Shown one piece after another: positions 12,993 to 29,149 of a DNA stretch of 34,480 nucleotides. Positions within the stretch are counted from its first letter, which is position 1; every line of letters begins with the position of its first letter. The notes below the pieces were generated by a model. The model made no database searches. It saw only the letters and a list, made by a program, of their open reading frames with translations, and was not told where the DNA came from. The translations under genes and the position numbers were made by a program. The stretch lies in the sequence record SRR22947727_6145; one strand, written 5' to 3'.

Positions 12993-13331
12993 TTAGCGTG
13001 GCAGGGGCGTTTTCACCCCGTTGTCGTCAACCTGAACCAAGGTCACGTTGGTGGAAAAAATCTCAATTTCCTCCCGTCGAACCGAGACTGCATAGGTCAC
13101 TGAGGTGTTGCCCTGCCCGACGCGCTGGCTATTGAAATGCAGAATCGAGCCTTCGCGAACGGTTTTTTTGAATTCAACATCGTCCATCCCAACGGTGACG
13201 AATTTGGAGTTGGGAAATTCGGAACTGGCCGCGAGGTAGGCCATTTCATCGACCCAGGCGAGTAGGTAGCCGCCGAAGAGAAAGCCGTAGTGGTTTAAAT
13301 ATTGGGGGAGGACAAGGCGGTGGTTTTCCAT
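12993..13331 (-). CDS. Acyl-CoA thioesterase (hotdog fold, YciA-like)
   Basis: LNHYGFLFGGYLLAWVDEMA, VTVGMDDVEFK, GNTSV. Confidence 0.9.
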   Translation of the reverse strand: MENHRLVLPQYLNHYGFLFGGYLLAWVDEMAYLAASSEFPNSKFVTVGMDDVEFKKTVREGSILHFNSQRVGQGNTSVTYAVSVRREEIEIFSTNVTLVQVDDNGVKTPLPR

Positions 13332-13457
13332 GGCGGGACGGCTTTTTGCGAGAATAAGGCGGTTTTTTCACCAAATCTGGAAAATTATGTAAGAATTTTG
13401 AATGAAACGCCGGATTCTAACGTTTATAGTAAAATGTCATTTTTATCATTCCGTTTT

Positions 13458-14183
13458 ATGAAAACCGTTCCAGCACTTCTTTCCGCCCTTGCCCTGTTCG
13501 TATCGTCGGGCGCGGTGAATAGTCAGGAAACCAGTCCTTTCGCAGGAAAAACTCCTGATCAACTCACTGCTGATGAGGTGATGAAATTGGTTCGTTACAG
13601 CTACACCCTTTTTGATCGCGACTTCAGCGGACAGCTTCGGGTCGGTTTTAATAAAAAAGTGCCATTCATTTTGTCGCTGAAGCCGGAAGCGATTCGATTC
13701 ATTTTTTCCGATCCTGCGCACATCATCTATCTCGACAGGAAAGATAAGAAATTTGCGCTTTATGAAGGCAAAGGGGGCGCTCAACTGTCGCCCGTTGACC
13801 CGAAAAATTATGGCACCACCCTTCGCGGAACGGATGTGACTTACGATGATCTTTCAATGCGTTTCCTTTACTGGCCGAACGCAAAGATTGTGGATACCCA
13901 GCGAATTAAGAATCGCGAGACCTGGGTGGTTCGGGTGATCAATCCTGACGGCGCGGGACTTTACTCAACCGTAGATTGCTGGGTGGACAAAACCAGTGGC
14001 GGAATGCTCAAGATGATCGGTTACAACGCCAAAGGTCGTCCAATTCGTCGCTTCGAAGTCATTCACGGCAAGAAAATGGGCGATATTTGGATGGTCGACG
14101 AAATGCGTATCGAAACCATCAACCCAGCAAGCGGCAATCGGACGTCTCACACGCGTTTGCAGATTGAGGAAGCGATCAAGTAA
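13458..14183 (+). CDS. Outer-membrane lipoprotein-sorting protein (LolA-like family)
   Basis: Signal peptide MKTVPALLSALALFVSSGAVNS from ATG13458; LRGTDVTYDDL motif and a beta-rich C-terminus (WVDK...YNAKG...WMVDEMRIET). Confidence 0.7.
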   Translation: MKTVPALLSALALFVSSGAVNSQETSPFAGKTPDQLTADEVMKLVRYSYTLFDRDFSGQLRVGFNKKVPFILSLKPEAIRFIFSDPAHIIYLDRKDKKFALYEGKGGAQLSPVDPKNYGTTLRGTDVTYDDLSMRFLYWPNAKIVDTQRIKNRETWVVRVINPDGAGLYSTVDCWVDKTSGGMLKMIGYNAKGRPIRRFEVIHGKKMGDIWMVDEMRIETINPASGNRTSHTRLQIEEAIK

Positions 14184-16893: not shown

Positions 16894-17658
16894 TTACTGC
16901 TCCAACGGCCAAATCGCGGCGACCGATTTAGAATCGACCCATCCGCGCAATTCACCCGGAATATCGACGTATTTCCATGGGCCGCGGTCTTGCAGAATTC
17001 GGACCTCGGAACCCGGCGGCAAAGCGATCACTGCTTCGGCTCCGGGAGCAGGTGCGGTCAACGCAGAAACATTGCCTCCTTTAACGACGGCGAATTTTTC
17101 GATCGCTAAGGTGTCGGATCGTCGACTTCCTGCCCAAATCGCAGCAATCGCGAGGGACAGGCCGAATAGGCTGATGATGATGAGTAGTGGACGCCAGTCG
17201 CGCAGTTTTCGAATGATGATCATCGCGGCAAGGCTCAGCAAAAACACCCAGGCGCCGATCCACGCGTAGATCGTGAGTTCAGTCGGTTTCCGATTGAAGA
17301 GAAAGGCATCGAGTGGCTTTCGTTCAATTTCGAGATAGCCGTGGGTCTTTTGCAAAAACGTAAGGTTTTGATTGGCCTCAGTCATGCGCGGATCAAAAAC
17401 CCGAGCCCGCTGAAACCAGAGTGCCGCTTCGCCGGGTCGGTTTTGGCGGAAAATTGCGTTTCCGAGATTAAAAAACACGTCCTCAGAAACCTTGCCGGCC
17501 TGAATGAGTTTTCGATATTCCGATTCCGCCGCAGCGAATTTTCCGCTTTGAAAAGCGGCGTTTCCTTGAGCGAAAAGCACGTCGCGTTGATCTGCCTGAG
17601 CAGCAACCGCCCAGCCCAGAATGAGACCGAAAAAGAGAATGAGTCGGGCCGCTTTCAA
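16894..17658 (-). CDS. batE: BatE-like TPR + transmembrane + SH3-like protein
   Basis: Signal peptide, TPR (LFAQGNAAFQSGKF...FFNLGNAIFR), two TM helices, LPPGSEVRIL...GELRGWV; TTG start overlaps the batD stop. Confidence 0.75.
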   Translation of the reverse strand: MKAARLILFFGLILGWAVAAQADQRDVLFAQGNAAFQSGKFAAAESEYRKLIQAGKVSEDVFFNLGNAIFRQNRPGEAALWFQRARVFDPRMTEANQNLTFLQKTHGYLEIERKPLDAFLFNRKPTELTIYAWIGAWVFLLSLAAMIIIRKLRDWRPLLIIISLFGLSLAIAAIWAGSRRSDTLAIEKFAVVKGGNVSALTAPAPGAEAVIALPPGSEVRILQDRGPWKYVDIPGELRGWVDSKSVAAIWPLEQ

Positions 17659-19550
17659 AAGTCGAAATCGTCGGTTTTAGGTTTCGGTTTCGAACTGCCA
17701 CGAACTTCTGCTCGCGCTTTTGCCTTAGCCAGATTGGGCGGAACAGTGCCGAGGTGCTTCAAAATTTCGTGGGTTTCCGCCGCTTCCCGTTCGGACACAT
17801 TTCCGGTTCGCTGAGCTTCTTCAGCTCCGTAAAGTAGCCATTCGCAGCGTGACGCGAGGGCTTCTTTGGCCTTCAACGTCTCGGGTGGAATTCGGCTTTT
17901 ATCTTTGCCGGCCTGCTCACGCTCAAGTGCGACGAGAGTTTGCTTCACAGCGGTGTAGTATTCTGGCCGAGGTGAATTGGCGGATGGAATCGCCGCAGCG
18001 GCTTGAGTAAACGATTGCGGTTTTCCGTCGTCCGCGGCGTTTTTTCGCGCCGAACGTCTCCCGGCCCAGCGAACCAATCCAATTCCAAGCAACGTGAACA
18101 GCGTGATCGAAGGCACTGCTTGGGCGATCCAAAACATCGGTTGTGAAGTGGCTGCGACCGGCATTTTTCGCCACGTTGGAGGGAGCGTTTTAATCGTCAG
18201 GATATCGTTGAACTGTGCAGCTGGTTTTGCGGTGTCAGGCATGGAGGATGCTCCGTTTTGAGCTCCTGCGTTCGACATCATCGCTGCGGCCGGTTGGTTT
18301 GCCCTCGGATCGGGAGCGACCTGAATCGGAATCGGTTGGGTGGTTCGCGTGCTGTAGGTGGCCGTTGTCGGATCAAAAAAGGACAGTTCAAACGACGGGA
18401 TTTGTGTCATCTCTTTCTGCGGAATCACGATTTGGGAAAACGTCACTTTTCCGGGAGTCAGACCATCTGAATCCTCGGTTGGGTCGAGAATTTTCCGTGC
18501 TTCGTACGTCTTCCAGTCAGCCGGCCCAAGCGACAAAAATTTGGGAGCACCCATCGTTTCAAAATTTCCTGTTCCGGAAACCACGATCTCAAGCGGGATA
18601 GGATCGCCTACCGTGACTTGCTGGGTTGAAGCCATCGCCGTCACCGAAAAATTTCCCACCCCACCAGTAAACGACGCCGGTTTTCCCGGAGGAAGCGGCT
18701 TTACGTTCAATTCGAGCGAATTACTCGTCATCGACTGATTTCGCATCCGCGCGAGCAACATCCGCGGACCAAAGCTCGAACCGGTATCGACGATTCGCGC
18801 TGACATTTCTGCGGGGCCGATTTTGAACTTCCCCGATTTCAGAGCAAACATCGTTGCTGGAACAATCGCCGTATAAAATTGAAGTCCGTCAACTTCCCGC
18901 GCTCCAAATGTGAGTTTACTGGGACGGCGAACGACGATGGCATCATGCTCCAGACTCGCTTTGCCGATTTCCTGAATCTGGGCCTTCGAAAACGCGGTCA
19001 TCGTGAATGGGATCATCTGATTTTCGTAAATCTCTTTCACCTCGGTTTCCAAAACCGCAAAATAAGGCCGGGTCGAATCCATCGCAGATTTGGGTGTTTT
19101 GCGCTCAAAAACCGAAAGCGCGTGTTTTTCGGTTTTTGCCGGCAATCCATCGACTTCGATTTCGATTTCGGGAATGATGAAGTCGCCCGCCTTTTCGGCA
19201 ATCACCGTGAAAATGAAATCAAATCGAGTGGCGCCGTTGATATAACTTTGGTTTCTCGAAGTCTGCTGAATAATCAAACCTGGAACGCTGAGCGATTGGG
19301 GAACCGGTTTGGTTGGCACGCCATTGTTAATTGAAATCGTATATTGATTCAGCTCGCCGACCCCAAATTTAGCCCGATCGACGGAACTGGATACCGATGG
19401 GCCAGTTGCTTGAGCGATTGCAATCTCACTGGAAAAAAGCATCGCGAAAAACAAGACGGCGAGAAAAAACGATCCAACAGGGTTGGTTCGTCGATCATAC
19501 CCTATCCGATCGTGGAAAGGTGCTGGGTCGGAGTTTCTCAAAGCGATCAC
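17655..19550 (-). CDS. batD: BatD-family protein
   Basis: Repeated Ig-like BatD modules (AEKAGDFIIPEIEIEVDG; LELNVKPLP; FTGGVGNFSV; VTVGDPIPL; IPSFELSFFDP) and a C-terminal TM helix. The start is uncertain (GTG 19550). Confidence 0.82.
   Translation of the reverse strand: MIALRNSDPAPFHDRIGYDRRTNPVGSFFLAVLFFAMLFSSEIAIAQATGPSVSSSVDRAKFGVGELNQYTISINNGVPTKPVPQSLSVPGLIIQQTSRNQSYINGATRFDFIFTVIAEKAGDFIIPEIEIEVDGLPAKTEKHALSVFERKTPKSAMDSTRPYFAVLETEVKEIYENQMIPFTMTAFSKAQIQEIGKASLEHDAIVVRRPSKLTFGAREVDGLQFYTAIVPATMFALKSGKFKIGPAEMSARIVDTGSSFGPRMLLARMRNQSMTSNSLELNVKPLPPGKPASFTGGVGNFSVTAMASTQQVTVGDPIPLEIVVSGTGNFETMGAPKFLSLGPADWKTYEARKILDPTEDSDGLTPGKVTFSQIVIPQKEMTQIPSFELSFFDPTTATYSTRTTQPIPIQVAPDPRANQPAAAMMSNAGAQNGASSMPDTAKPAAQFNDILTIKTLPPTWRKMPVAATSQPMFWIAQAVPSITLFTLLGIGLVRWAGRRSARKNAADDGKPQSFTQAAAAIPSANSPRPEYYTAVKQTLVALEREQAGKDKSRIPPETLKAKEALASRCEWLLYGAEEAQRTGNVSEREAAETHEILKHLGTVPPNLAKAKARAEVRGSSKPKPKTDDFDF
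19469..19513. repeat. 45-bp element, copy 4 (head-to-head), within the 5' coding region of batD
   Basis: ACGATCCAACAGGGTTGGTTCGTCGATCATACCCTATCCGATCGT. Confidence 0.88.
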
Positions 19551-21134: not shown

Positions 21135-21264
21135 GACTCATTATTCCTGAACGGAACGGGTTTTGCAAAAAATTACGACGGTAGAGCCGGAATTTCGCAT
21201 TTATTAACTTTTGCTGGCGTCTAATCTAAGAAATCACCACCTCACTTCGTTTTATTCCGACATC

Positions 21265-22136
21265 GTGAACTTTTCAAAATCCGCATCCTTTCTTTCGCTT
21301 GCCGCATGGTCTGTTTTTGCGTTCGGATCGATGTCGGTGGCTGCTCCTGCCTTGAAAAAAGCAAGCGTAGCCAGTATTAAGCCACAGGATCTCGTCGAAT
21401 ACGCGACGATGGAACCCAGAGTCCAAAAGCTCGTTCGTGAAGCGCTGGCATTGACCACAAAGGGGCTGGGTTATCGATACGGCTCGAATTCCCCGAAGAA
21501 TAAAGGAATGGATTGCTCTGGGACCGTCCAGCACACCTTGAATGCAGCAGGCCTCTCGCAAATCCTGCGATCGTCCTATACGCGATGTATCATTGGACCA
21601 AAGACGCAGGGACGTTGAACAAAGTTAGCGGCGTGCATTCTCACGATCACAGCGGTCTTTCAAAGTTGAAGCCGGGTGACTTGCTATTTTGGGAAGGAAC
21701 TTATGCGACGGCAGGTCGGGTGCCGCCGATTTCTCACGTGATGATTTATCTCAGAACGCTAAAAGAGGACGGTAAAAAAGTGATGTATGGCGCGAGCAGT
21801 GGTCGTCGTTATCGGGGAAAGAAAATTCACGGGGCCAGCGTGTTCGACTTCAGTTTGCCGAAGGTGGATTCGAAAGCGAAATTTGTCGGTTACAGTCCGA
21901 TTCCGGGATTCAAAAGTGTCAAACCTGCGCCGAAAAAGACCGTGGCTTTCAGAAAAAAGACGGAATCTGAGGTGACGAAACCAGTCGCGCCGAAAAAAAC
22001 CGCAACGGCCGTCGAAACTAAACCAGTGGCTGAAGAACAGACACCGCCACCCACAACTGTGCCAGTGGCTACTGCTCGGAAAACGGTTCTGCCAAAACTG
22101 TTTCCAAAACTTCGCGCAGCCCTGTCGAAGAAGTGA
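21265..22136 (+). pseudogene. Frameshifted NlpC/P60 cell-wall peptidase
   Basis: Frame A has a signal peptide, YRYGS and the catalytic GMDCSG. Frame B continues MYHWTK, LKPGDLLFW and SHVMIY. The break is at TATACGCGATG (about 21580-21587). Confidence 0.85.
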
Positions 22137-24558
22137 GGTCTTCAAATCGGAAGCCGGGTTCATTTTCGATTCCCCGATAAAGCGCTCGCAGACGAAGCGC
22201 GACATTCTGGGCAAGTTCATTACCACGGGTTTCGATAAGCAGCTCCCTCAATTCTACCGGCCCGCTGAACTCTCTGCCGCCATGAAGTTGGCCGGTGGCA
22301 TTGACTGGTTTTCCTGCTTCCAGTGTCCGCCAGCGACCGGTCGCATCGAAATTCTCCAGTCCAAACCCGATCGGATCGATCTTTTCATGACAGCGAGCGC
22401 ATTCGGTTTTGGTTGAATGCTCCGCGAGTTCTTCACGCAGCGTTTTTCCCCGCGCCTCGCCCGCGTCTCCCGGTAGCTCGCCGGCGTCAGGAAGGGGATC
22501 CCCCACTGGCAACCCTAGCAAATTTTCCCAGACCCATTTTCCACGCCGAACTGGGTTGGTTCGTGTCGGCGAGGACGTTGCCACCAACACGGCACCTTTT
22601 CCGAGAAGGCCAAATCGATTCGAGTTTTCCAGATCGGTTGATTCATAATAGGCCGCTAATTTCTCATCAGCGAACGACTCGTTGGCGGTTAATAAATCGG
22701 AAACCGGCCGGTTTTCGCGGACGAGTTTTGCGATGAAATTATGAACTTCAGCACGCATCGAATCAGCAATGTCGGGCGTGAAATCAGGCCAGAGATTTCG
22801 GTCAGGCGCAATTTCTTCGAGTTCGAGCCACTCATCTGAAAAGCGACGAAAAAACGCGTCCGAACGAGGATCCGTCAGCATCCGCGCGATTTGAGATTTC
22901 AGCACATCCGGAATTCTGAGATCTGCTTCAGCCAGTTCCAAATCAGATTTTGAGAGCCACAAAAAATACGAGAGGTCGGACGCCTCTTGCGAATTTTTCT
23001 GTTCATCTCCGCGAAATAGAAAATCGGATGACATCAGAATCGCGGCGAGCGCTAGCTTCACCGAACGCGCCCGGTCTTCCTCGCGCCGCTGCGCTTCGAG
23101 AACGACGCGGACATACGGTGCAAGCTCAGCTTCGGAAACGGGGTGCCTAAATGCCTGCTCGGCAAATTCACGAACCAGCGTGGTCGGATCAACTGGCTCC
23201 CGCATTCGCTGAATCAAATTCCAGTCCTGCGGCGCGATATTCGATTCGGGTAAAACCGGACCTGAAACGGCAAATTTTTCGACATAAAGTTTTCCCTGAT
23301 ACGCCATCCAATCCGTCCATTCAACGTGTGCAACCCGATCCAGAATTTCCTGATTTCTCTGTAGCCGATCCTGATTTTTTGCCAACCACGCCGCTGCTAA
23401 TTCCGTCTTTGAAAACTCCGATTCAAGAGCCAGTTTCGTTAAAATCCGATCCCAATCAGCCTCATGTTCGTGATAATATTTACGGCGCTGATCAATTTCC
23501 CGGGAATCACCATCGACTCCGAACGCGGTAAGGTATTCGATGCTTTCCTGCATCCCGAGCGCTTTTAAATTCAACGATTCACGCAATTTGCGGGCTGCTG
23601 GAGTTTCGTCCGGCGGGGCAGGGAAGTTGGCTGAATTTTTGCGAGACTGTTCATCAATTTTTCCAACAAAATCCGGTGGCAATGGAATATGGGGAACGAG
23701 GTTTTTGCTACCGATTTTTACCGAGTGAAACCCGCGCCGAACAAAAGTGGACACTGATTTTTTGATCGGATTTTTGATGTCGTTTTTTGCAAATTTGATT
23801 TCCGCGACGACTTCGCCTGAGACAAAAAACTGAGCAACACACGGCTGACCAATCGTAGCTGCATTGGCGGAAAATTCATAAAATCCATCGACCGGAAATT
23901 CGACCTCTACTTCCAGAAAATGAGTCGGTTGCACCACCATCATTCCATCGAGATGCGCCTTCACACCGGGAGCGCTCGTGGTCATTTTTTGAGCCGAAAA
24001 CGAGCTCGTTTTACGATTATCGAGGGCGATCGCAAACGCGCCATCGAGCGCCCGTTCAGCCGAAGCAAACAGCAATTCCATCTGCGACGGCGTGATCGCC
24101 AACGCGGCCCGGTCATTCGAAAAACCGCTCGTTCCCTGACCGTCGATTGGTAAATTTTCACCCGCCCGCAGATCCACGCCGAGAAGATCACGCAGCGTGT
24201 TGGCGTATTCTTCACGCGTTAGTCGTCGCACCCTTGGAGATTCCAGCTCAGGGAACTCGATTTGAGTAAAATCGTGACGAAGTTTGGTAAGCATCGCATC
24301 GCGTTCTGCTCGTGTCGGATATGGTGCTTTTGTCGGCATTTCCTCCGAATCAATTTGGTCAATCAGCGTGAGCCAATCATGCCGATTTGCTGCGGAAAAG
24401 TTGCGCAGGTCCGTTTCACCTTCGAGGTTTTGCGGATCATCACCGTGGCATTTGAGGCAGTAAAAAGACATGAAATCATCCGCGAAAACAGCTCTGTTGC
24501 CGCTTCCCCAAATCACCGCGCCGCAAAACACGTGAAAAATGATTTTCCCAAATCGCAT
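22069..24558 (-). CDS. Planctomycete cytochrome c protein with DUF1587/1592/1588/1595/1585-type domains
   Basis: Signal peptide, CLKCH...EMP, RRLTREEYANTLRDLLG, FAEQAFRHPV, LSYFLW, RTNPVRRGKWV, CARCH-EKIDPIGFGLENFDATGRWR. Confidence 0.88.
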   Translation of the reverse strand: MRFGKIIFHVFCGAVIWGSGNRAVFADDFMSFYCLKCHGDDPQNLEGETDLRNFSAANRHDWLTLIDQIDSEEMPTKAPYPTRAERDAMLTKLRHDFTQIEFPELESPRVRRLTREEYANTLRDLLGVDLRAGENLPIDGQGTSGFSNDRAALAITPSQMELLFASAERALDGAFAIALDNRKTSSFSAQKMTTSAPGVKAHLDGMMVVQPTHFLEVEVEFPVDGFYEFSANAATIGQPCVAQFFVSGEVVAEIKFAKNDIKNPIKKSVSTFVRRGFHSVKIGSKNLVPHIPLPPDFVGKIDEQSRKNSANFPAPPDETPAARKLRESLNLKALGMQESIEYLTAFGVDGDSREIDQRRKYYHEHEADWDRILTKLALESEFSKTELAAAWLAKNQDRLQRNQEILDRVAHVEWTDWMAYQGKLYVEKFAVSGPVLPESNIAPQDWNLIQRMREPVDPTTLVREFAEQAFRHPVSEAELAPYVRVVLEAQRREEDRARSVKLALAAILMSSDFLFRGDEQKNSQEASDLSYFLWLSKSDLELAEADLRIPDVLKSQIARMLTDPRSDAFFRRFSDEWLELEEIAPDRNLWPDFTPDIADSMRAEVHNFIAKLVRENRPVSDLLTANESFADEKLAAYYESTDLENSNRFGLLGKGAVLVATSSPTRTNPVRRGKWVWENLLGLPVGDPLPDAGELPGDAGEARGKTLREELAEHSTKTECARCHEKIDPIGFGLENFDATGRWRTLEAGKPVNATGQLHGGREFSGPVELRELLIETRGNELAQNVALRLRALYRGIENEPGFRFEDLTSSTGLREVLETVLAEPFSEQ

Positions 24559-24599
24559 CGATACTAAACTAGCACGAAACCAGAAGAAAATCGGCTCGC

Positions 24600-24644
24600 A
24601 CGATCCAATAGGGTTGCTTCATCGAACAGACCCTATTGGATCGT
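24600..24644. repeat. 45-bp element, copy 5 (head-to-head, most symmetric copy)
   Basis: Perfect 16-bp inverted repeat CACGATCCAATAGGGT (24599-24614) / ACCCTATTGGATCGTG (24630-24645). Confidence 0.92.
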
Positions 24645-24755
24645 GAAAAATCATTTCGGCTTTCAAGTATTGTCTTGAAACCATGCGGGGCTCTCACGGG
24701 AAAATCACATCTTCAGAAACGTCGTCCGAAAAACCCGCGAAGGCGTTTCCTGTGT

Positions 24756-25748
24756 ATGCCTGATTCATCATGGAAAAGTGCGTTTCTGGGATCTCTTGTC
24801 GCCGATGCTTTTGCGATGCCGGTTCACTGGTATTACGATCGAAATGCGTTGGTCCGAGACTATGGGGTGGTGCAGGAATTTGTAGCTCCGAAAAATCCCC
24901 ACGCTGATTCGATTCTGTGGCGTTCGGAATACACGCCGGTGAATGAAAAAGGCGATATTCTGCGCGAACAGGCGGCTTTCTGGGGACAGCGGGGGATTCA
25001 CTATCACCAGTTTCTCGAAGCGGGCGAAAACACCGTAAACTACCGACTCGCGGCTGAATTGGTGCGCTGGTCGGACGGGGGTGGCGGCTACGAGGCGGAT
25101 GCCTGGCTGGAACGTTACATCGAGTTAATGCTGACTCCAGGTTGGCATCGGGACACATATTTGGAGGAATATCACCGCGGTTTTTTCATGAAATATGCGT
25201 CGGGAAAGGCTCCCCGGAAATGCGCGATTCGTGATGAACACATCGGAGGCTTGGCTCAGGTCGCAGCCGTTTGTCTGGCGGCGGAAAAGCAGGATTTGGC
25301 GGCGCTTCGAGCGACGGTGAGAGAACATGTGGGGCTCACGCACGAACACAAAAACGTTCAACTAGCTGCGGACACTCTGGTTCGACTCTTGTGGAAAATC
25401 GGGGAGGACGTTCCGCTCCGAGATGCGATTCAAAGCGAGGCAGGTGATTGGTTTTCAGCGAAAAAAGCGGAACGCTGGATTGATTTGCCGGATTCTCAAA
25501 TCATCGGACAGAAATACAGTCCGGCGTGTTATATCGATCAATCCATGCCGGCATCGATTTATCTGGCATGGAAATATCACGATGATTTTTTCCGTGGGAT
25601 TCAGGCCAATGCGATGGTCGGTGGCGATAACTGTCACCGTGGAGCTGTCGTTGGAGCTCTCCTAGGAGCGGCGAACGGAGTGGATGACAAATGGGTTTCG
25701 GAGCTTCACGAACCAGCCCTATTGGATCGGGTTAGAGCGATTTCTTGA
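24756..25748 (+). CDS. ADP-ribosylglycohydrolase-family protein
   Basis: AFLGSLVADAFAMPVHWYY, HVGLTH, ANAMVGGDNCHRGAVVGALLGAANG. The likely start is ATG24756. Confidence 0.85.
   Translation: MPDSSWKSAFLGSLVADAFAMPVHWYYDRNALVRDYGVVQEFVAPKNPHADSILWRSEYTPVNEKGDILREQAAFWGQRGIHYHQFLEAGENTVNYRLAAELVRWSDGGGGYEADAWLERYIELMLTPGWHRDTYLEEYHRGFFMKYASGKAPRKCAIRDEHIGGLAQVAAVCLAAEKQDLAALRATVREHVGLTHEHKNVQLAADTLVRLLWKIGEDVPLRDAIQSEAGDWFSAKKAERWIDLPDSQIIGQKYSPACYIDQSMPASIYLAWKYHDDFFRGIQANAMVGGDNCHRGAVVGALLGAANGVDDKWVSELHEPALLDRVRAIS
25708..25729 (-). repeat. Solo unit of the palindromic repeat inside the 3' end of the ADP-ribosylglycohydrolase CDS
   Basis: ACGAACCAGCCCTATTGGATCG is the reverse complement of CGATCCAATAGGGCTGGTTCGT, one mismatch from consensus. 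Confidence 0.85.
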
Positions 25749-26106
25749 AAATCAAAGTCGCCCAACCGGTCATGAACAGTAGTCCACCGAGAGGGGTAAT
25801 GGGCCCGAGAAACTTGAGTGAGTTATCGACGGCCAATCCGTAAAGGCTTCCGGAAAAACAGAGGATTCCAGCGAGAAGAATGATCTTCACAAACCTCCCT
25901 ACTTTGGTTCCGCGAAGAGCAAGGATGAACAGGGCGAGTCCGTGGATTAGATGGTAGAAAACAGCGGTGTCCCATACGTCGGCATTGAAACTCGCGCCGA
26001 GTTTTTTCGGCAGCAAATGTGCGCCAAATGCACCGAGAGCGATGCCAATCAAAAGAAGGGCGGCCGCTAATTTTCGCCAAAGAACATTCTCACCAGTTTC
26101 CGTCAT
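25732..26106 (-). CDS. DUF423 (YgdD/TMEM256-family) membrane protein
   Basis: ALGAFGAH, TAVFYHLIHGLAL, GILCFSGSLY, LGPITPLGG...GW. Confidence 0.93.
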   Translation of the reverse strand: MTETGENVLWRKLAAALLLIGIALGAFGAHLLPKKLGASFNADVWDTAVFYHLIHGLALFILALRGTKVGRFVKIILLAGILCFSGSLYGLAVDNSLKFLGPITPLGGLLFMTGWATLIFKKSL

Positions 26107-26160: not shown

Positions 26161-27078
26161 CTATTTTCGCACGACCTGAAAGCCGTTGGGGCGAAGGATC
26201 AGTTTCTCGTTCTCGTTGTCAAAATGAAGCGTTTTAGAGCCGGCGGTTAGTTCCATTTTTGCACCGGTCAATTCGAGCGATTGATCATTCGGCTTGTAGA
26301 CGAGTTCATCGGCTTTGGCGGTTTCGACCTGTCCGTTTTCGAGGGTTCGTTCAATGATTGCGCCAAAGGCCTGAAAGGCTCCGGTTGATGCGTAGCTCGC
26401 GGTCGAACTTGAGCTTGCCTGAACCACGAGCCGTTCGGCTTGAATGTGAAATTCGGGGTGGTTGACCTCGACTTTCCCATCGTATTCGAGAGCTGAATCG
26501 GTGCGTTTGCTGTGATTTGCGGAGACCGCGAAGGACTCAACGCGGCCTGCAGTGGCGGCTTCAAATACATCAATCGAAGGAGTAAAAGTTCCGTTTAATT
26601 CAGCCGGAGAAGTGGTTTCGACCAAGGTGAACTCGGCAACCTGCATGATGGGAGCGATTGGTTTCAGATCAGTCGCAGCCACAACCCCAGTCACGTCACG
26701 AACGATTCCGATGCGATTTGATGGCGCTGGATTTTCTTCGGGCATCGTATCAGGTTCAGCCAGCTGGTTGTCGGCAGTCGCGTAGGTCACGGTGAGTTGA
26801 AATGTAGTTTCAGCCCGCTCCCCGCCTTTGATCTGATGAAGGACCAGTGCGGTCATTCCAAAAAATAAGGTGACGGCTGCCGCCATTTTTGCCCAGTCCT
26901 GCCAGCCGAAACTCGCTTTGGCGATCGGTTGGGGAAGCTCGAGTGGTTGGTTTACCGTGCGAAGCAAAATCGCTTCGACGAGAGCCGTGTCTTCGCCGGA
27001 GCCGAGTCGTGCGTGTTCGCTGAGGAGGGCGTCCATCACGTCTGGCTTCTTGGTGGGAATATTGGATTCCTGATTCAT
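26161..27078 (-). CDS. Putative anti-sigma factor: single TM helix and C-terminal LptA/OstA-like domain
   Basis: ATGA overlap with the ECF sigma gene; short cytoplasmic N-terminus, WAKMAAAVTLFFGMTALVL TM helix, Pro/Thr-rich linker, beta-rich C-terminus. Confidence 0.7.
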   Translation of the reverse strand: MNQESNIPTKKPDVMDALLSEHARLGSGEDTALVEAILLRTVNQPLELPQPIAKASFGWQDWAKMAAAVTLFFGMTALVLHQIKGGERAETTFQLTVTYATADNQLAEPDTMPEENPAPSNRIGIVRDVTGVVAATDLKPIAPIMQVAEFTLVETTSPAELNGTFTPSIDVFEAATAGRVESFAVSANHSKRTDSALEYDGKVEVNHPEFHIQAERLVVQASSSSTASYASTGAFQAFGAIIERTLENGQVETAKADELVYKPNDQSLELTGAKMELTAGSKTLHFDNENEKLILRPNGFQVVRK

Positions 27079-27680
27079 GATTCTTGGAGGGATTGGTCTG
27101 ATATTTTGCGATCGACGCAGGCTTTCAGCAATTCGCGGGCGCGTTGGAGGCGTTTGCGAATGGCTGCCGGAGAAACGCCGAGTGCTTCTGCGACTTCTTC
27201 GCCGTTTTGGTCATTGTAATAAAATTCGTTCACTGTTTCGCGAAGGTTCTCGGGAAGGCGTTCGAGGCACGATGACAAGGCATCAAAAACAGTGCGGTTT
27301 CCGGCCGCACTTTCGGCCTGCCAGGCGGCGATATCGGCGTCCATCTCAGCGATGTTGGTATCGGAATACTGATAACGCTTGTTTTTCCGAACCCACTCAC
27401 GCCATTTGTTGCGGACGATTCCACGCATCCATGTCGGGAAATCGCGGGTCACGTCAAACGTGTCCATTTTATCGAAAGCGACGATGAACGCTTCCTGAAC
27501 GATGTCATTTGCAGTGTTTGATTCGCGGGTCAGCGCCCGGGCGTAAACGATCAATTCGCGGTGATGCGCGCGCACCAAATCACCAAAAACAGCCGGATCA
27601 TGAAGATCTGGCTGGCTTTCAGAAAGCTGGTTCTCTACGTCGTTCGCGATGGCGGAAATGAGGTGCATTGGCTCGTTCAC
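27075..27680 (-). CDS. ECF-type RNA polymerase sigma-70 factor
   Basis: Region 2 (FGDLVRAHHREL, ANDIVQEAF, FPTWMRGIVRN) and region 4 (CLERLP, EEVAEALGVSPAAIRKRLQRARELL). The start is uncertain (27680 or 27668). Confidence 0.93.
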   Translation of the reverse strand: MNEPMHLISAIANDVENQLSESQPDLHDPAVFGDLVRAHHRELIVYARALTRESNTANDIVQEAFIVAFDKMDTFDVTRDFPTWMRGIVRNKWREWVRKNKRYQYSDTNIAEMDADIAAWQAESAAGNRTVFDALSSCLERLPENLRETVNEFYYNDQNGEEVAEALGVSPAAIRKRLQRARELLKACVDRKISDQSLQES

Positions 27681-27742
27681 AGTTAATTGCCCAATTTGGT
27701 AGGTTTTGTGACATGAAAATGCATGTCGTGGGCTCAGTTCGG

Positions 27743-29149
27743 CTATTTCGCAGGCGGCAATCGCTCATCGAGCTGAGTTTCGACTGGCTTGATGGTCGCT
27801 TTGTGGGCTTCAGCCGCTTTTTTCAGGTCTGCGATAACGGCGTCGTTTCCTTCGGCAATATCGAATTTCTCACGAGGATCGTGGCCAAGATGATAGAGCA
27901 ACGGTGGATCGTGTTCTTCGAGTTTCGCGCCTCTCACGTAGCTGATTTTGGTTTTGAAATGAGCTTTGTGCTGGCCTTTACGAACGGCGAATAGGGTTGC
28001 ACCGTGATAGTAGAACAGGTTTTCGCGGGGAGATTTTCCGGTTCCAAAAAGGACTGGAGAAAGATCGTGACCGTCATAAACGCGGTCATCGGGGAGTGTC
28101 GCGCCGGCCAGTTTGGCGAATGTTGGGAGTAAATCGAGCGTTGCGCCCATGTCGTGAACAATTCCCGTTTTCAACTTTCCAGGCCAATACATAACGGTCG
28201 GTTCGCGCATGCCACCTTCCCAGGTCGAGCCTTTGCCCTCGCGAAGCAGTCCTGCAGAGCCGCCGTGGGTATTGAAGCTGAGCCACGGACCGTTGTCTGA
28301 TGTGAAAACGACGAGCGTATTTTCAGCGACGCCATTTTTCTCTAGGGCTTCTCGAACCTGCCCGACTGACCAATCAATTTCTTCGATGACGTCGCCGTAA
28401 ATCCCTGCCGTTGAGGTGTCTTTGAAATCCGGTCCGCGAAATAGCGGAATGTGCGGGAGGCTGTGAGCGAGGTAGATGAAAAACGGTTTGTCACCGAATT
28501 CTTCGATCTTTTGCACGGCCTCTTCGGTGTAGCGCTTGGTAATCGTGCGCTGGTCAGCGGGGCGCTCGACTTCCTCGGTGTCACGCAGAAGCGGGACGTC
28601 GTAGGCTTTGAAATTTTCGTCTTCGGCGAGCTGCTGCTGGCTGACTTTTCGCTCGATTCGGTTCATGTCATTCGAATAGGGAATGCCGAAATAGCTGTCG
28701 AATCCGTGGCTTGTCGGGAGGAATTCCGGAAGGTGTCCCAAATGCCATTTTCCCACCGCGGCCGTTTCGTAACCGGCTCCTTTCAGCGCTTTAGCAATCG
28801 TGATTTCCGATGTTGGAAGTCCGCGAGCTGAATCCGGGAAAAGCACGCGGCGCTTGTCCGAACACATGCCATTTCGGATCGGGTAACGTCCGGTAAGAAG
28901 CCCTGCGCGGCTCGGCGTGCAAACACACGCTGCGACGTAAAAATTGGTCCACTTCTGGCCCTCAGCCGCCATTTTATCGATGTGAGGCGTTTTGATTGTC
29001 GGATGCCCAAATGTCGATAGATCGCCGTAACCGAGATCATCGCAGAAGATGACGACGAAGTTGGGTTGATCCGCTGCCGTGGCATTTACCGAGTCAAGGG
29101 CGGCGAAAAGCGCTATTGCAGCGTAAGTGAAAAGTGATCGTAGAATCAT
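27743..29149 (-). CDS. Sulfatase, S1 family (arylsulfatase A-like)
   Basis: Signal peptide, PNFVVIFCDDLGYGD, CTPSRAGLLTGRY, GKWHLG, GIPYSNDM, FTSDNGPW, GKGSTWEGGMR. Confidence 0.93.
   Translation of the reverse strand: MILRSLFTYAAIALFAALDSVNATAADQPNFVVIFCDDLGYGDLSTFGHPTIKTPHIDKMAAEGQKWTNFYVAACVCTPSRAGLLTGRYPIRNGMCSDKRRVLFPDSARGLPTSEITIAKALKGAGYETAAVGKWHLGHLPEFLPTSHGFDSYFGIPYSNDMNRIERKVSQQQLAEDENFKAYDVPLLRDTEEVERPADQRTITKRYTEEAVQKIEEFGDKPFFIYLAHSLPHIPLFRGPDFKDTSTAGIYGDVIEEIDWSVGQVREALEKNGVAENTLVVFTSDNGPWLSFNTHGGSAGLLREGKGSTWEGGMREPTVMYWPGKLKTGIVHDMGATLDLLPTFAKLAGATLPDDRVYDGHDLSPVLFGTGKSPRENLFYYHGATLFAVRKGQHKAHFKTKISYVRGAKLEEHDPPLLYHLGHDPREKFDIAEGNDAVIADLKKAAEAHKATIKPVETQLDERLPPAK

Follow-up and report, generated by a model that had tools for sequence, protein, structure and literature searches.

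In the sigmaE-RseA-RseB system of E. coli, an ECF sigma factor is held by a single-pass anti-sigma factor, and a distinct protein, RseB, binds LPS. Site-1 cleavage followed by RseP cleavage is a known release scheme for anti-sigma factors of the RseA/RsgI type. In the available part of PMC6358824, this release is stated for RseA, and LPS released from Lpt is proposed as a sigmaE signal. Two ECF groups have single-TM anti-sigma factors with vWF and DUF3520 domains encoded at +1: ECF226, which includes Verrucomicrobia and whose promoters are reported not to be conserved, and ECF289, which is proteobacterial and has the promoter CCCAAGGA/CGTCTxA (available part of PMC7826278). As for the Lpt proteins, the accessible portions of two papers describe that LPS sits in LptA and LptC mainly in cavities between two jellyrolls, that the C-terminal strand of LptC binds the N-terminal strand of LptA and that the truncated LptAm, an engineered monomeric LptA (delta160-185), supports growth (PMC5575297), and that I36 and Y114 of LptA crosslink LPS (PMC4493717). 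vWA force transducers occur in PVC bacteria, and the accessible part of their description reports no phenotype and names no regulator (PMC12204202).

I analysed a stretch of 34,480 nucleotides (the window), in which the following features were found at the locus of interest.

27743-29149, minus strand: sulfatase gene, upstream of the ECF sigma gene
27687-27712, minus strand: predicted ECF promoter (-35 GTCAC at 27712-27708, 18-nt spacer, -10 CAA at 27689-27687)
27075-27680 from GTG (201 aa) or 27075-27668 from ATG (197 aa), minus strand: ECF sigma ORF
26161-27078, minus strand: single-pass anti-sigma gene, 305 aa, in an ATGA overlap with the sigma ORF
26941-27057, minus strand: cytoplasmic anti-sigma motif, residues about 8-46, two helices, matching no Pfam family
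26830-26895, minus strand: transmembrane helix, residues about 62-83 (hydropathy; helix 59-82 in the model)
26782-26814, minus strand: conserved juxtamembrane beta strand, residues 89-99, the predicted first jellyroll rung in the place of the first strand of LptC
26548-26781, minus strand: low-complexity, poorly ordered insertion, residues 100-177 (pLDDT 45-61)
26164-26547, minus strand: LptA-type beta-jellyroll, residues 178-305 (PF03968, Foldseek, VIA)
25732-26106, minus strand: DUF423 membrane protein gene (Pfam, 78.5 bits), 54 nt downstream of the anti-sigma gene

The preliminary description had read an ECF sigma gene overlapping a 305-aa gene by ATGA, with a DUF423 gene directly downstream, and this layout is confirmed at the coordinates above. 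The -4 overlap is retained in 41 of 55 related loci. A DUF423 gene lies downstream in 29 of the 52 jellyroll loci with at least 1.5 kb of downstream sequence (on the same strand and within 1.3 kb in 22) and in 0 of 19 loci whose partner has another domain; it is a frequent, not an obligatory, downstream neighbour. No sigma-70 promoter or terminator was found in the region above chance level. RNA contigs from four seawater runs of one study span the sigma, anti-sigma, DUF423 and upstream sulfatase genes and leave 24500-25465 uncovered, which is weak evidence since DNA carry-over is possible. Elsewhere in the window, at 16894-19550 and 13302-14183, there are BatD-like, TPR/SH3 and LolA-like genes, of which I take the TPR/SH3 gene to be BatE-like. 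On the plus strand at 21211-22136, two ORFs of 135 and 207 aa overlap in different frames, the longer one with a weak NlpC/P60 match (E 0.024); they are possibly one frameshifted gene.

The sigma factor is an ECF sigma factor of about 200 aa with sigma2 and sigma4 only. Its Pfam matches to Sigma70_r2 (52.4 bits) and r4_2 (44 bits) are both over cut-off. Among NCBIfam models, it passes TIGR02937 (90.1 against a cut-off of 42.9), while the best match, to TIGR02989 (122 bits), is slightly below its cut-off of 124.55. Translation probably starts at ATG 27668 rather than at GTG 27680, because the corresponding Met is where the relatives begin and the predicted -10 element reaches down to 27687.

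The 305-aa protein had been assigned an anti-sigma topology, of which the cytoplasmic part and the one TM helix are borne out: the top hydrophobic 19-mers begin at residues 62-65, and the AlphaFold model, built with 54 sequences, places two helices in the cytoplasm (14-24 and 31-42), followed by the TM helix at 59-82, a strand at 89-99 and a beta domain at 178-304. The Pro/Thr/Ala linker stands as to composition (Ala, Thr and Pro make up 30 of the 78 residues in 100-177); it is not a plain tether, since residues 89-99 form a conserved strand, which is modelled within the jellyroll. The orthologue from the same genus lacks about 35 residues of the insertion 100-177, which is a candidate target for a site-1 protease. 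A strand 147-155 of the first model was rejected as a core element; it is not conserved and is absent in the same-genus orthologue and in the second model. In the cytoplasmic motif, E21, R24 and D30 are invariant. An Atlas search with residues 8-100 found no named family, the nearest being zf-HC2 (0.87), a lead only; the 305-aa protein has no Cys. It has no RseA or FecR Pfam match either. A homologue, P0025, has the motif in tandem duplicate.

A sigma interaction is also supported by modelling. Sigma residues 20-195 together with residues 8-62 of the partner scored 0.92 and the best control 0.02, although the score may partly reflect likeness, since solved ECF/anti-sigma complexes exist; 51 of 78 solved complexes attain the mark set for this score, as do 2 of 108 mismatched pairs. 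The model runs agreed in at least 81% of contacts, with a partner pLDDT of at least 69, and the modelled motif contacts both sigma2 and sigma4. The protein has what is expected of a single-pass anti-sigma factor, being encoded at +1, coupled to the sigma gene and made of a cytoplasmic domain and one TM helix. It is very probably an anti-sigma factor. By analogy, it would inhibit the sigma factor, which would be freed via regulated proteolysis.

It was then assessed whether the C-terminal domain has the fold that had been recognized by eye from its LptA/OstA pattern. Pfam agrees: residues 190-283 match PF03968 (LptD_N) with 27.4 bits against a cut-off of 20.4 (E 4e-6), and the isolated domain scores 30.3 bits. 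In a Foldseek search with the AlphaFold model, LptA ranked first (E 1.2e-6 to 2r19). By VIA, the model of residues 179-305 superposes on LptA 30-155 with Z 12.9 and rmsd 2.9 over 113 aligned residues, and in a search of 48,161 chains all 10 matches with Z of at least 8 were LptA/H, LptC or LptD. A FecR/PupR-type fold was rejected, PupR (6ovm) giving Z 3.8 and rmsd 4.5 over 86 aligned residues against the 12.9 of LptA. Most residues of the domain have a pLDDT above 90. With a profile of 50 such jellyrolls, LptA sequences come up at E 2e-7 and LptD sequences at 0.007, and a second family member, folded with 96 sequences, has the same fold (Z 13.5). These models and matches confirm an LptA-type jellyroll.

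The juxtamembrane strand appears to belong to this domain. Large hydrophobic residues occupy its positions 93, 95 and 97 in 96%, 100% and 89% of 55 rows. Since it is the sole strand outside the jellyroll in the second model, it must pair with the jellyroll there; secondary structure and alignment ranges suggest this pairing, and the pLDDT of strand 89-99 is only 70-74 in the models. The strand aligns to LptC from residue 45-46 onward, and the unit of TM helix, strand and jellyroll superposes on full-length LptC (6mit_C, 120 aligned; 6mjp_C, 118 aligned). As modelled, the order of TM helix, first strand, long insertion and jellyroll is an LptC topology with an LptA-like sequence. The jellyroll stops at about LptA 155, so that the last docking strand of LptA is absent, whereas LptA proteins of the same lineage retain a further C-terminal strand. 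A short C-terminal tail in 30 of 55 members was considered as a kept docking strand and rejected; it models as coil. The N-terminal jellyroll edge appears in the models to be filled by the protein's own strand. Because the docking strand is absent and this edge appears self-filled, head-to-tail insertion in the Lpt bridge is less likely than the preliminary description supposed.

The inward-facing positions of the jellyroll hold large hydrophobics in nearly all of 55 rows. Counted on the profile alignment, F183 and Y261, the equivalents of LptA I36 and Y114, are large hydrophobics in 55 of 55 rows; by a by-eye register, I242 corresponds to LptA F95, and the equivalent of LptA L116 is Pro in 45 of 55 rows. 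Any domain of this fold has such a hydrophobic groove simply as its core, and a self-capped monomer, as modelled, may form no inter-jellyroll LPS cavity. The genome carries lpxC and lpxB as well as separate lptC, lptA and lptD genes; thus, the LPS ligand exists and the jellyroll is an extra copy. No LPS gene was found as a conserved neighbour across 57 loci. LPS or another envelope lipid in the groove is a tentative candidate for the signal, at slightly less than even likelihood.

Is this gene pair common? An exhaustive homologue search gave 62 clusters at 50% identity, of which 41 match PF03968 at E<=0.05 and 19 at cut-off, and 3 bear YfbK_C instead; a single-sequence word search with the 305-aa protein gave only 2 near-identical proteins. 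In the sigma scan, the best 80 of 178 relatives were taken, nearly all of them labelled Verrucomicrobiota. The anti-sigma motif, TM helix and jellyroll lie next to the sigma gene in 55 of these 80 Verrucomicrobiales loci, which establishes the pairing as conserved. The other partners are a jellyroll type cut by the contig end (2), full YfbK (13), short YfbK (4), F5/8C-like (3) and peptidase (1), and 2 lie off the contig. Partner classes were assigned by Pfam for 8 representatives and by eye for the remainder, Pfam being the independent check since the jellyroll HMM came from family members. Of 251 genomes sampled from the order, 39 have this protein type, and these belong to three genera of one family; in other families it is present in 0 of 179 genomes.

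The same motif is found on YfbK/vWA, F5/8C or peptidase domains beside sister sigmas. This domain swapping on one motif indicates that the C-terminal domain is an input module. One locus (L095:5528-7957) has the motif joined to an entire prolyl oligopeptidase, and three (L083, L099 and L100) to an F5/8 type C-like domain. In the sigma tree, the sigmas with a jellyroll partner group on a single branch (91/84, not starred) within the YfbK-partnered ones. In the jellyroll tree, which covers 28 of 50 jellyroll rows, the jellyrolls form a clade separate from the LptA proteins of the family (100/99) with long branches; because this tree is unrooted, LptA as the donor is only suggested. The housekeeping LptA proteins of the family (L001:940-2004, L101-L129) have low-complexity N-terminal extensions of about 150-450 aa before the jellyroll. 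There are also short extra LptA-like proteins (L010:1426-2022 of G013; also L102, L106 and L110), and the one at L010 has the appearance of a stand-alone lipoprotein (PF03968, 37.3 bits).

A GTCAC-N18/19-CAA core was found upstream of 65 of 68 sigmas, against 1.5% in shuffles, the 68 being the sigma upstreams with an anchor motif after 13 distant loci without it were dropped. The window promoter is the top site of its genome (25.1 bits), and the window sigma is predicted to be autoregulated through this GTCAC-N18-CAA promoter. A strict pattern gave 40 matches in 16 sigma-bearing genomes against 22 for the reversed control. Of the 40, 8 are the autoregulatory promoter of the sigma gene; among the remaining 32, 12 stand before members of one transducer family. 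Eleven of these 12 proteins begin with a TPR-like N-terminus; the family further shows an acidic linker, a TM helix bearing a conserved His, a Pro-rich segment and a vWA or squalene-cyclase-like alpha-toroid domain, and is TonB/TolA-like.

A footprint test compared 30 transducer loci from 12 sigma-bearing genomes with 30 from 16 sigma-less genomes (no sigma match at E<=1e-38), counting, among the matches listed, genes with TPR, TM helix and 250 bases upstream. Among these, a site of at least 9.5 bits precedes 18 of 27 TPR-transducers in sigma-bearing genomes and 0 of 14 in sigma-less ones; for the exact N18/19 core the counts are 16 of 27 and 0 of 14. For background, the count across this genome is 30 of 4727 genes. 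All 12 sigma-bearing genomes have at least one transducer site, and no p-value is given since they are not independent, 11 of the 12 being of one genus. The promoter-transducer link recurs in both other genera. Two family members are targets in this genome, C185 (17.8 bits) and C165 (15.8 bits); a third, C177, has no site. These sites make it likely that the sigma factor drives a small regulon of TPR-bearing transducers, and the predicted regulon consists of candidate envelope-motor parts. A YfbK-partnered sigma paralogue (C226) exists in this genome, but in 8 genomes that carry target sites only a single sigma of the clade is seen.

The predicted targets share a TM helix with a conserved His, a Pro-rich linker and a vWA domain with the vWA force transducers as described in the available part of PMC12204202; beyond these, they have an added N-terminal TPR-like cytoplasmic domain, and some have an alpha-toroid instead of the vWA domain. 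A relaxed pattern (8 genomes, 90 loci) brought out one further family, an exported alpha-toroid protein with a site in 5 of 16 sigma-bearing genomes (exact core in 4 of 16) and 0 of 13 others, a patchy, secondary candidate. A broad regulon was rejected, as genome-wide upstreams gave 58 matches against 46 in shuffles at 9.5 bits and 5 against 2 at 15 bits; with counts so near the shuffles, I make no claim for the weak matches, among them HtrA and a TPR gene of an ExbD operon. No core was found up to 3 kb upstream of lptA (which covers kdsA-lptC), lptD, lpxC or lpxB in this genome, nor before lptA in 8 relatives with 200-918 bases upstream covered. The absence of lpt and lpx genes from the predicted regulon weakens a simple LPS-sensor picture.

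Several other sites were seen. A TonB-dependent receptor gene (L132:876-3110, G000:C104) has a 16.3-bit site 19 bases upstream. Genus g18 has a second GTCAC-N18-CAA at the end of the sigma gene, before the anti-sigma gene (G151:C21:46691-46716, G019:C43:27743-27768, G070:C35:14325-14350), a possible added negative feedback. ATTAG-N5-CTAAT-like dyads were seen by eye about 100-250 bases upstream of the sigma gene (L028, L031, L040, L042-L044, L055, L065, L075 and others). They precede the divergent gene of a PQQ-repeat (BamB-like) cluster, which neighbours the sigma gene in up to 38 of 57 loci, and are likely the site of another regulator; these dyads lie outside the window. A second conserved ECF sigma (L232, G000:C97:65847; L324-L343) has GTCAC-N17-CAA autoregulation and frequently neighbours a transducer gene; the 568-aa protein paired with it matches no Pfam family and is FecR-like by eye only. 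TolB_N was not found in this genome, which is 95.6% complete.

How does the locus compare with the described systems? Like E. coli sigmaE, it has an ECF sigma factor with a single-pass anti-sigma factor, but the anti-sigma factor itself carries the Lpt-fold domain, the promoter is different, and no bam or lpt targets were found. With ECF226 and ECF289 it shares the single-TM anti-sigma factor at +1, and YfbK-type partners stand beside sister sigmas of its clade. However, those groups have vWF/DUF3520 in the anti-sigma factor and the window has a jellyroll; only sister loci have the former. The protein resembles LptC in its TM helix, first strand and jellyroll (superposition Z 11-12), and differs in about 60 cytoplasmic residues that bind sigma in the model, in the insertion of 70-80 residues after the first strand and in a jellyroll sequence closer to LptA. 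LptA is its best match in sequence and structure, and its end at about LptA 155 is near the LptAm truncation. Unlike LptA, the jellyroll is membrane-tethered, apparently self-capped at its N-terminal edge and outside the lpt operon. An LptA bridge subunit was rejected in view of TIGR03002 (30.1 against 71.7), the TM anchor, the true lptA elsewhere and the absent docking strand.

The proposal that I tentatively prefer, at a little under even likelihood as a whole, is an ECF/anti-sigma module that senses the envelope through a lipid-loaded jellyroll. As modelled, the two-helix motif would hold the sigma factor between sigma2 and sigma4 at the inner membrane, and the jellyroll, perhaps taken once from the LptA of the lineage, would sit on the outside of the membrane in an LptC-like topology. 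The groove would most likely trap acyl chains of LPS or another envelope lipid off its normal route. As in RseA/RsgI-type systems, loading may loosen the strand next to the membrane, which would lay the disordered insertion open to site-1 proteolysis; RseP-type cleavage would then free the sigma factor. The freed sigma factor would, from the DNA footprint, transcribe its own operon and the TPR-bearing TonB/TolA-like transducers with vWA or alpha-toroid periplasmic domains. The more specific version, a one-protein LPS sensor whose LptA domain is an LptC-like trap and whose loading induces a candidate TolA/TonB-like vWA motor maintaining the outer membrane in a genome in which TolB was not found, is rather unlikely. 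The reading of the preliminary description, an anti-sigma factor that binds LPS or docks on the Lpt bridge, stands in part: the Lpt fold, the modelled sigma binding and the conserved pairing, three points on which it could have failed, all held, while the lack of lpt/lpx genes in the predicted regulon and of the docking strand weakens it, as does the seemingly self-filled N-terminal edge.

Other signals have to be weighed. The superposition on full-length LptC (6mit_C, 6mjp_C), the contact of the LptC C-terminal strand with LptA and the growth with LptAm (available part of PMC5575297) would suit a domain that imitates LptC and takes up free LptA (or LptF) by beta-strand augmentation, so that sigma reports bridge assembly and not lipid; yet the last LptA strand is absent although kept in lineage LptA, the short tail of 30 of 55 members models as coil and the promoter precedes no lpt gene, and I regard this as distinctly unlikely. 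It is doubtful, too, that the jellyroll senses a non-Lpt protein or peptide that displaces strand 89-99 (a beta strand from unfolded outer-membrane proteins or from the regulated transducers, for instance) or is a protease shield whose folding signals. The ancestral-looking partners do bear YfbK/vWA protein-interaction domains, and the YfbK/vWA-partnered sigmas keep the same promoter, suggesting that the output was kept and the input domain changed; the regulon itself consists of vWA/alpha-toroid proteins, and strand 89-99 is modelled with a modest pLDDT. Against this, the groove pattern is retained across the whole domain and all solved structures above Z 8 are LPS transport proteins.

Automatic labels of some members ('LptA/OstA family protein', 'lipopolysaccharide export system protein LptA') imply a spare LptC/LptA that moves LPS with an incidental sigma link. 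This is highly improbable given the score to the TIGR03002 LptA equivalog far below cut-off, the presence of housekeeping lptC and lptA, the long branches of the separate clade and the cytoplasmic motif common to non-jellyroll partners. As for the output, the footprinted regulon could belong to the paralogous C97 sigma, which has the same GTCAC and CAA cores, occurs in 17 of 17 jellyroll-system genomes tested and lies at most about 11 kb from a transducer gene in 8. But in 18 of 20 genomes the spacer in the promoter of the C97-type sigma gene measures 17 nt, a length seen at none of the 27 transducer genes, of which 16 have a site with 18 or 19, and in 3 genomes with the C97 type and without the jellyroll system a site precedes 0 of 8 TPR-transducer genes, which makes this assignment improbable.

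No description of an anti-sigma factor with an LptA, OstA or jellyroll domain was found in the literature outside subscription papers, and LptA/OstA does not appear in the main text or in the available part of the supplement of the ECF reclassification (PMC7826278). This is a real, conserved ECF module with an Lpt-jellyroll anti-sigma factor, apparently undescribed so far. Its common cytoplasmic motif defines an anti-sigma family without a Pfam model and with at least four swapped input domains, and some family members carry a wrong LptA label in databases. Known Lpt jellyrolls are transport parts; use as a regulator input would give a new watch on LPS traffic, simpler than RseB or Rcs, and the jellyroll anti-sigma factor might serve as a genetically encoded reporter of Lpt failure. 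Through the predicted regulon, the jellyroll input is tied to the vWA force transducers recently proposed for PVC bacteria. If the one-protein LPS sensor is true, the Lpt fold would be placed in signalling, and these transducers would have their first physiological cue. A group of Verrucomicrobia has put a domain that ordinarily carries LPS on a membrane-bound regulator, and it may thereby sense stray envelope lipid directly.
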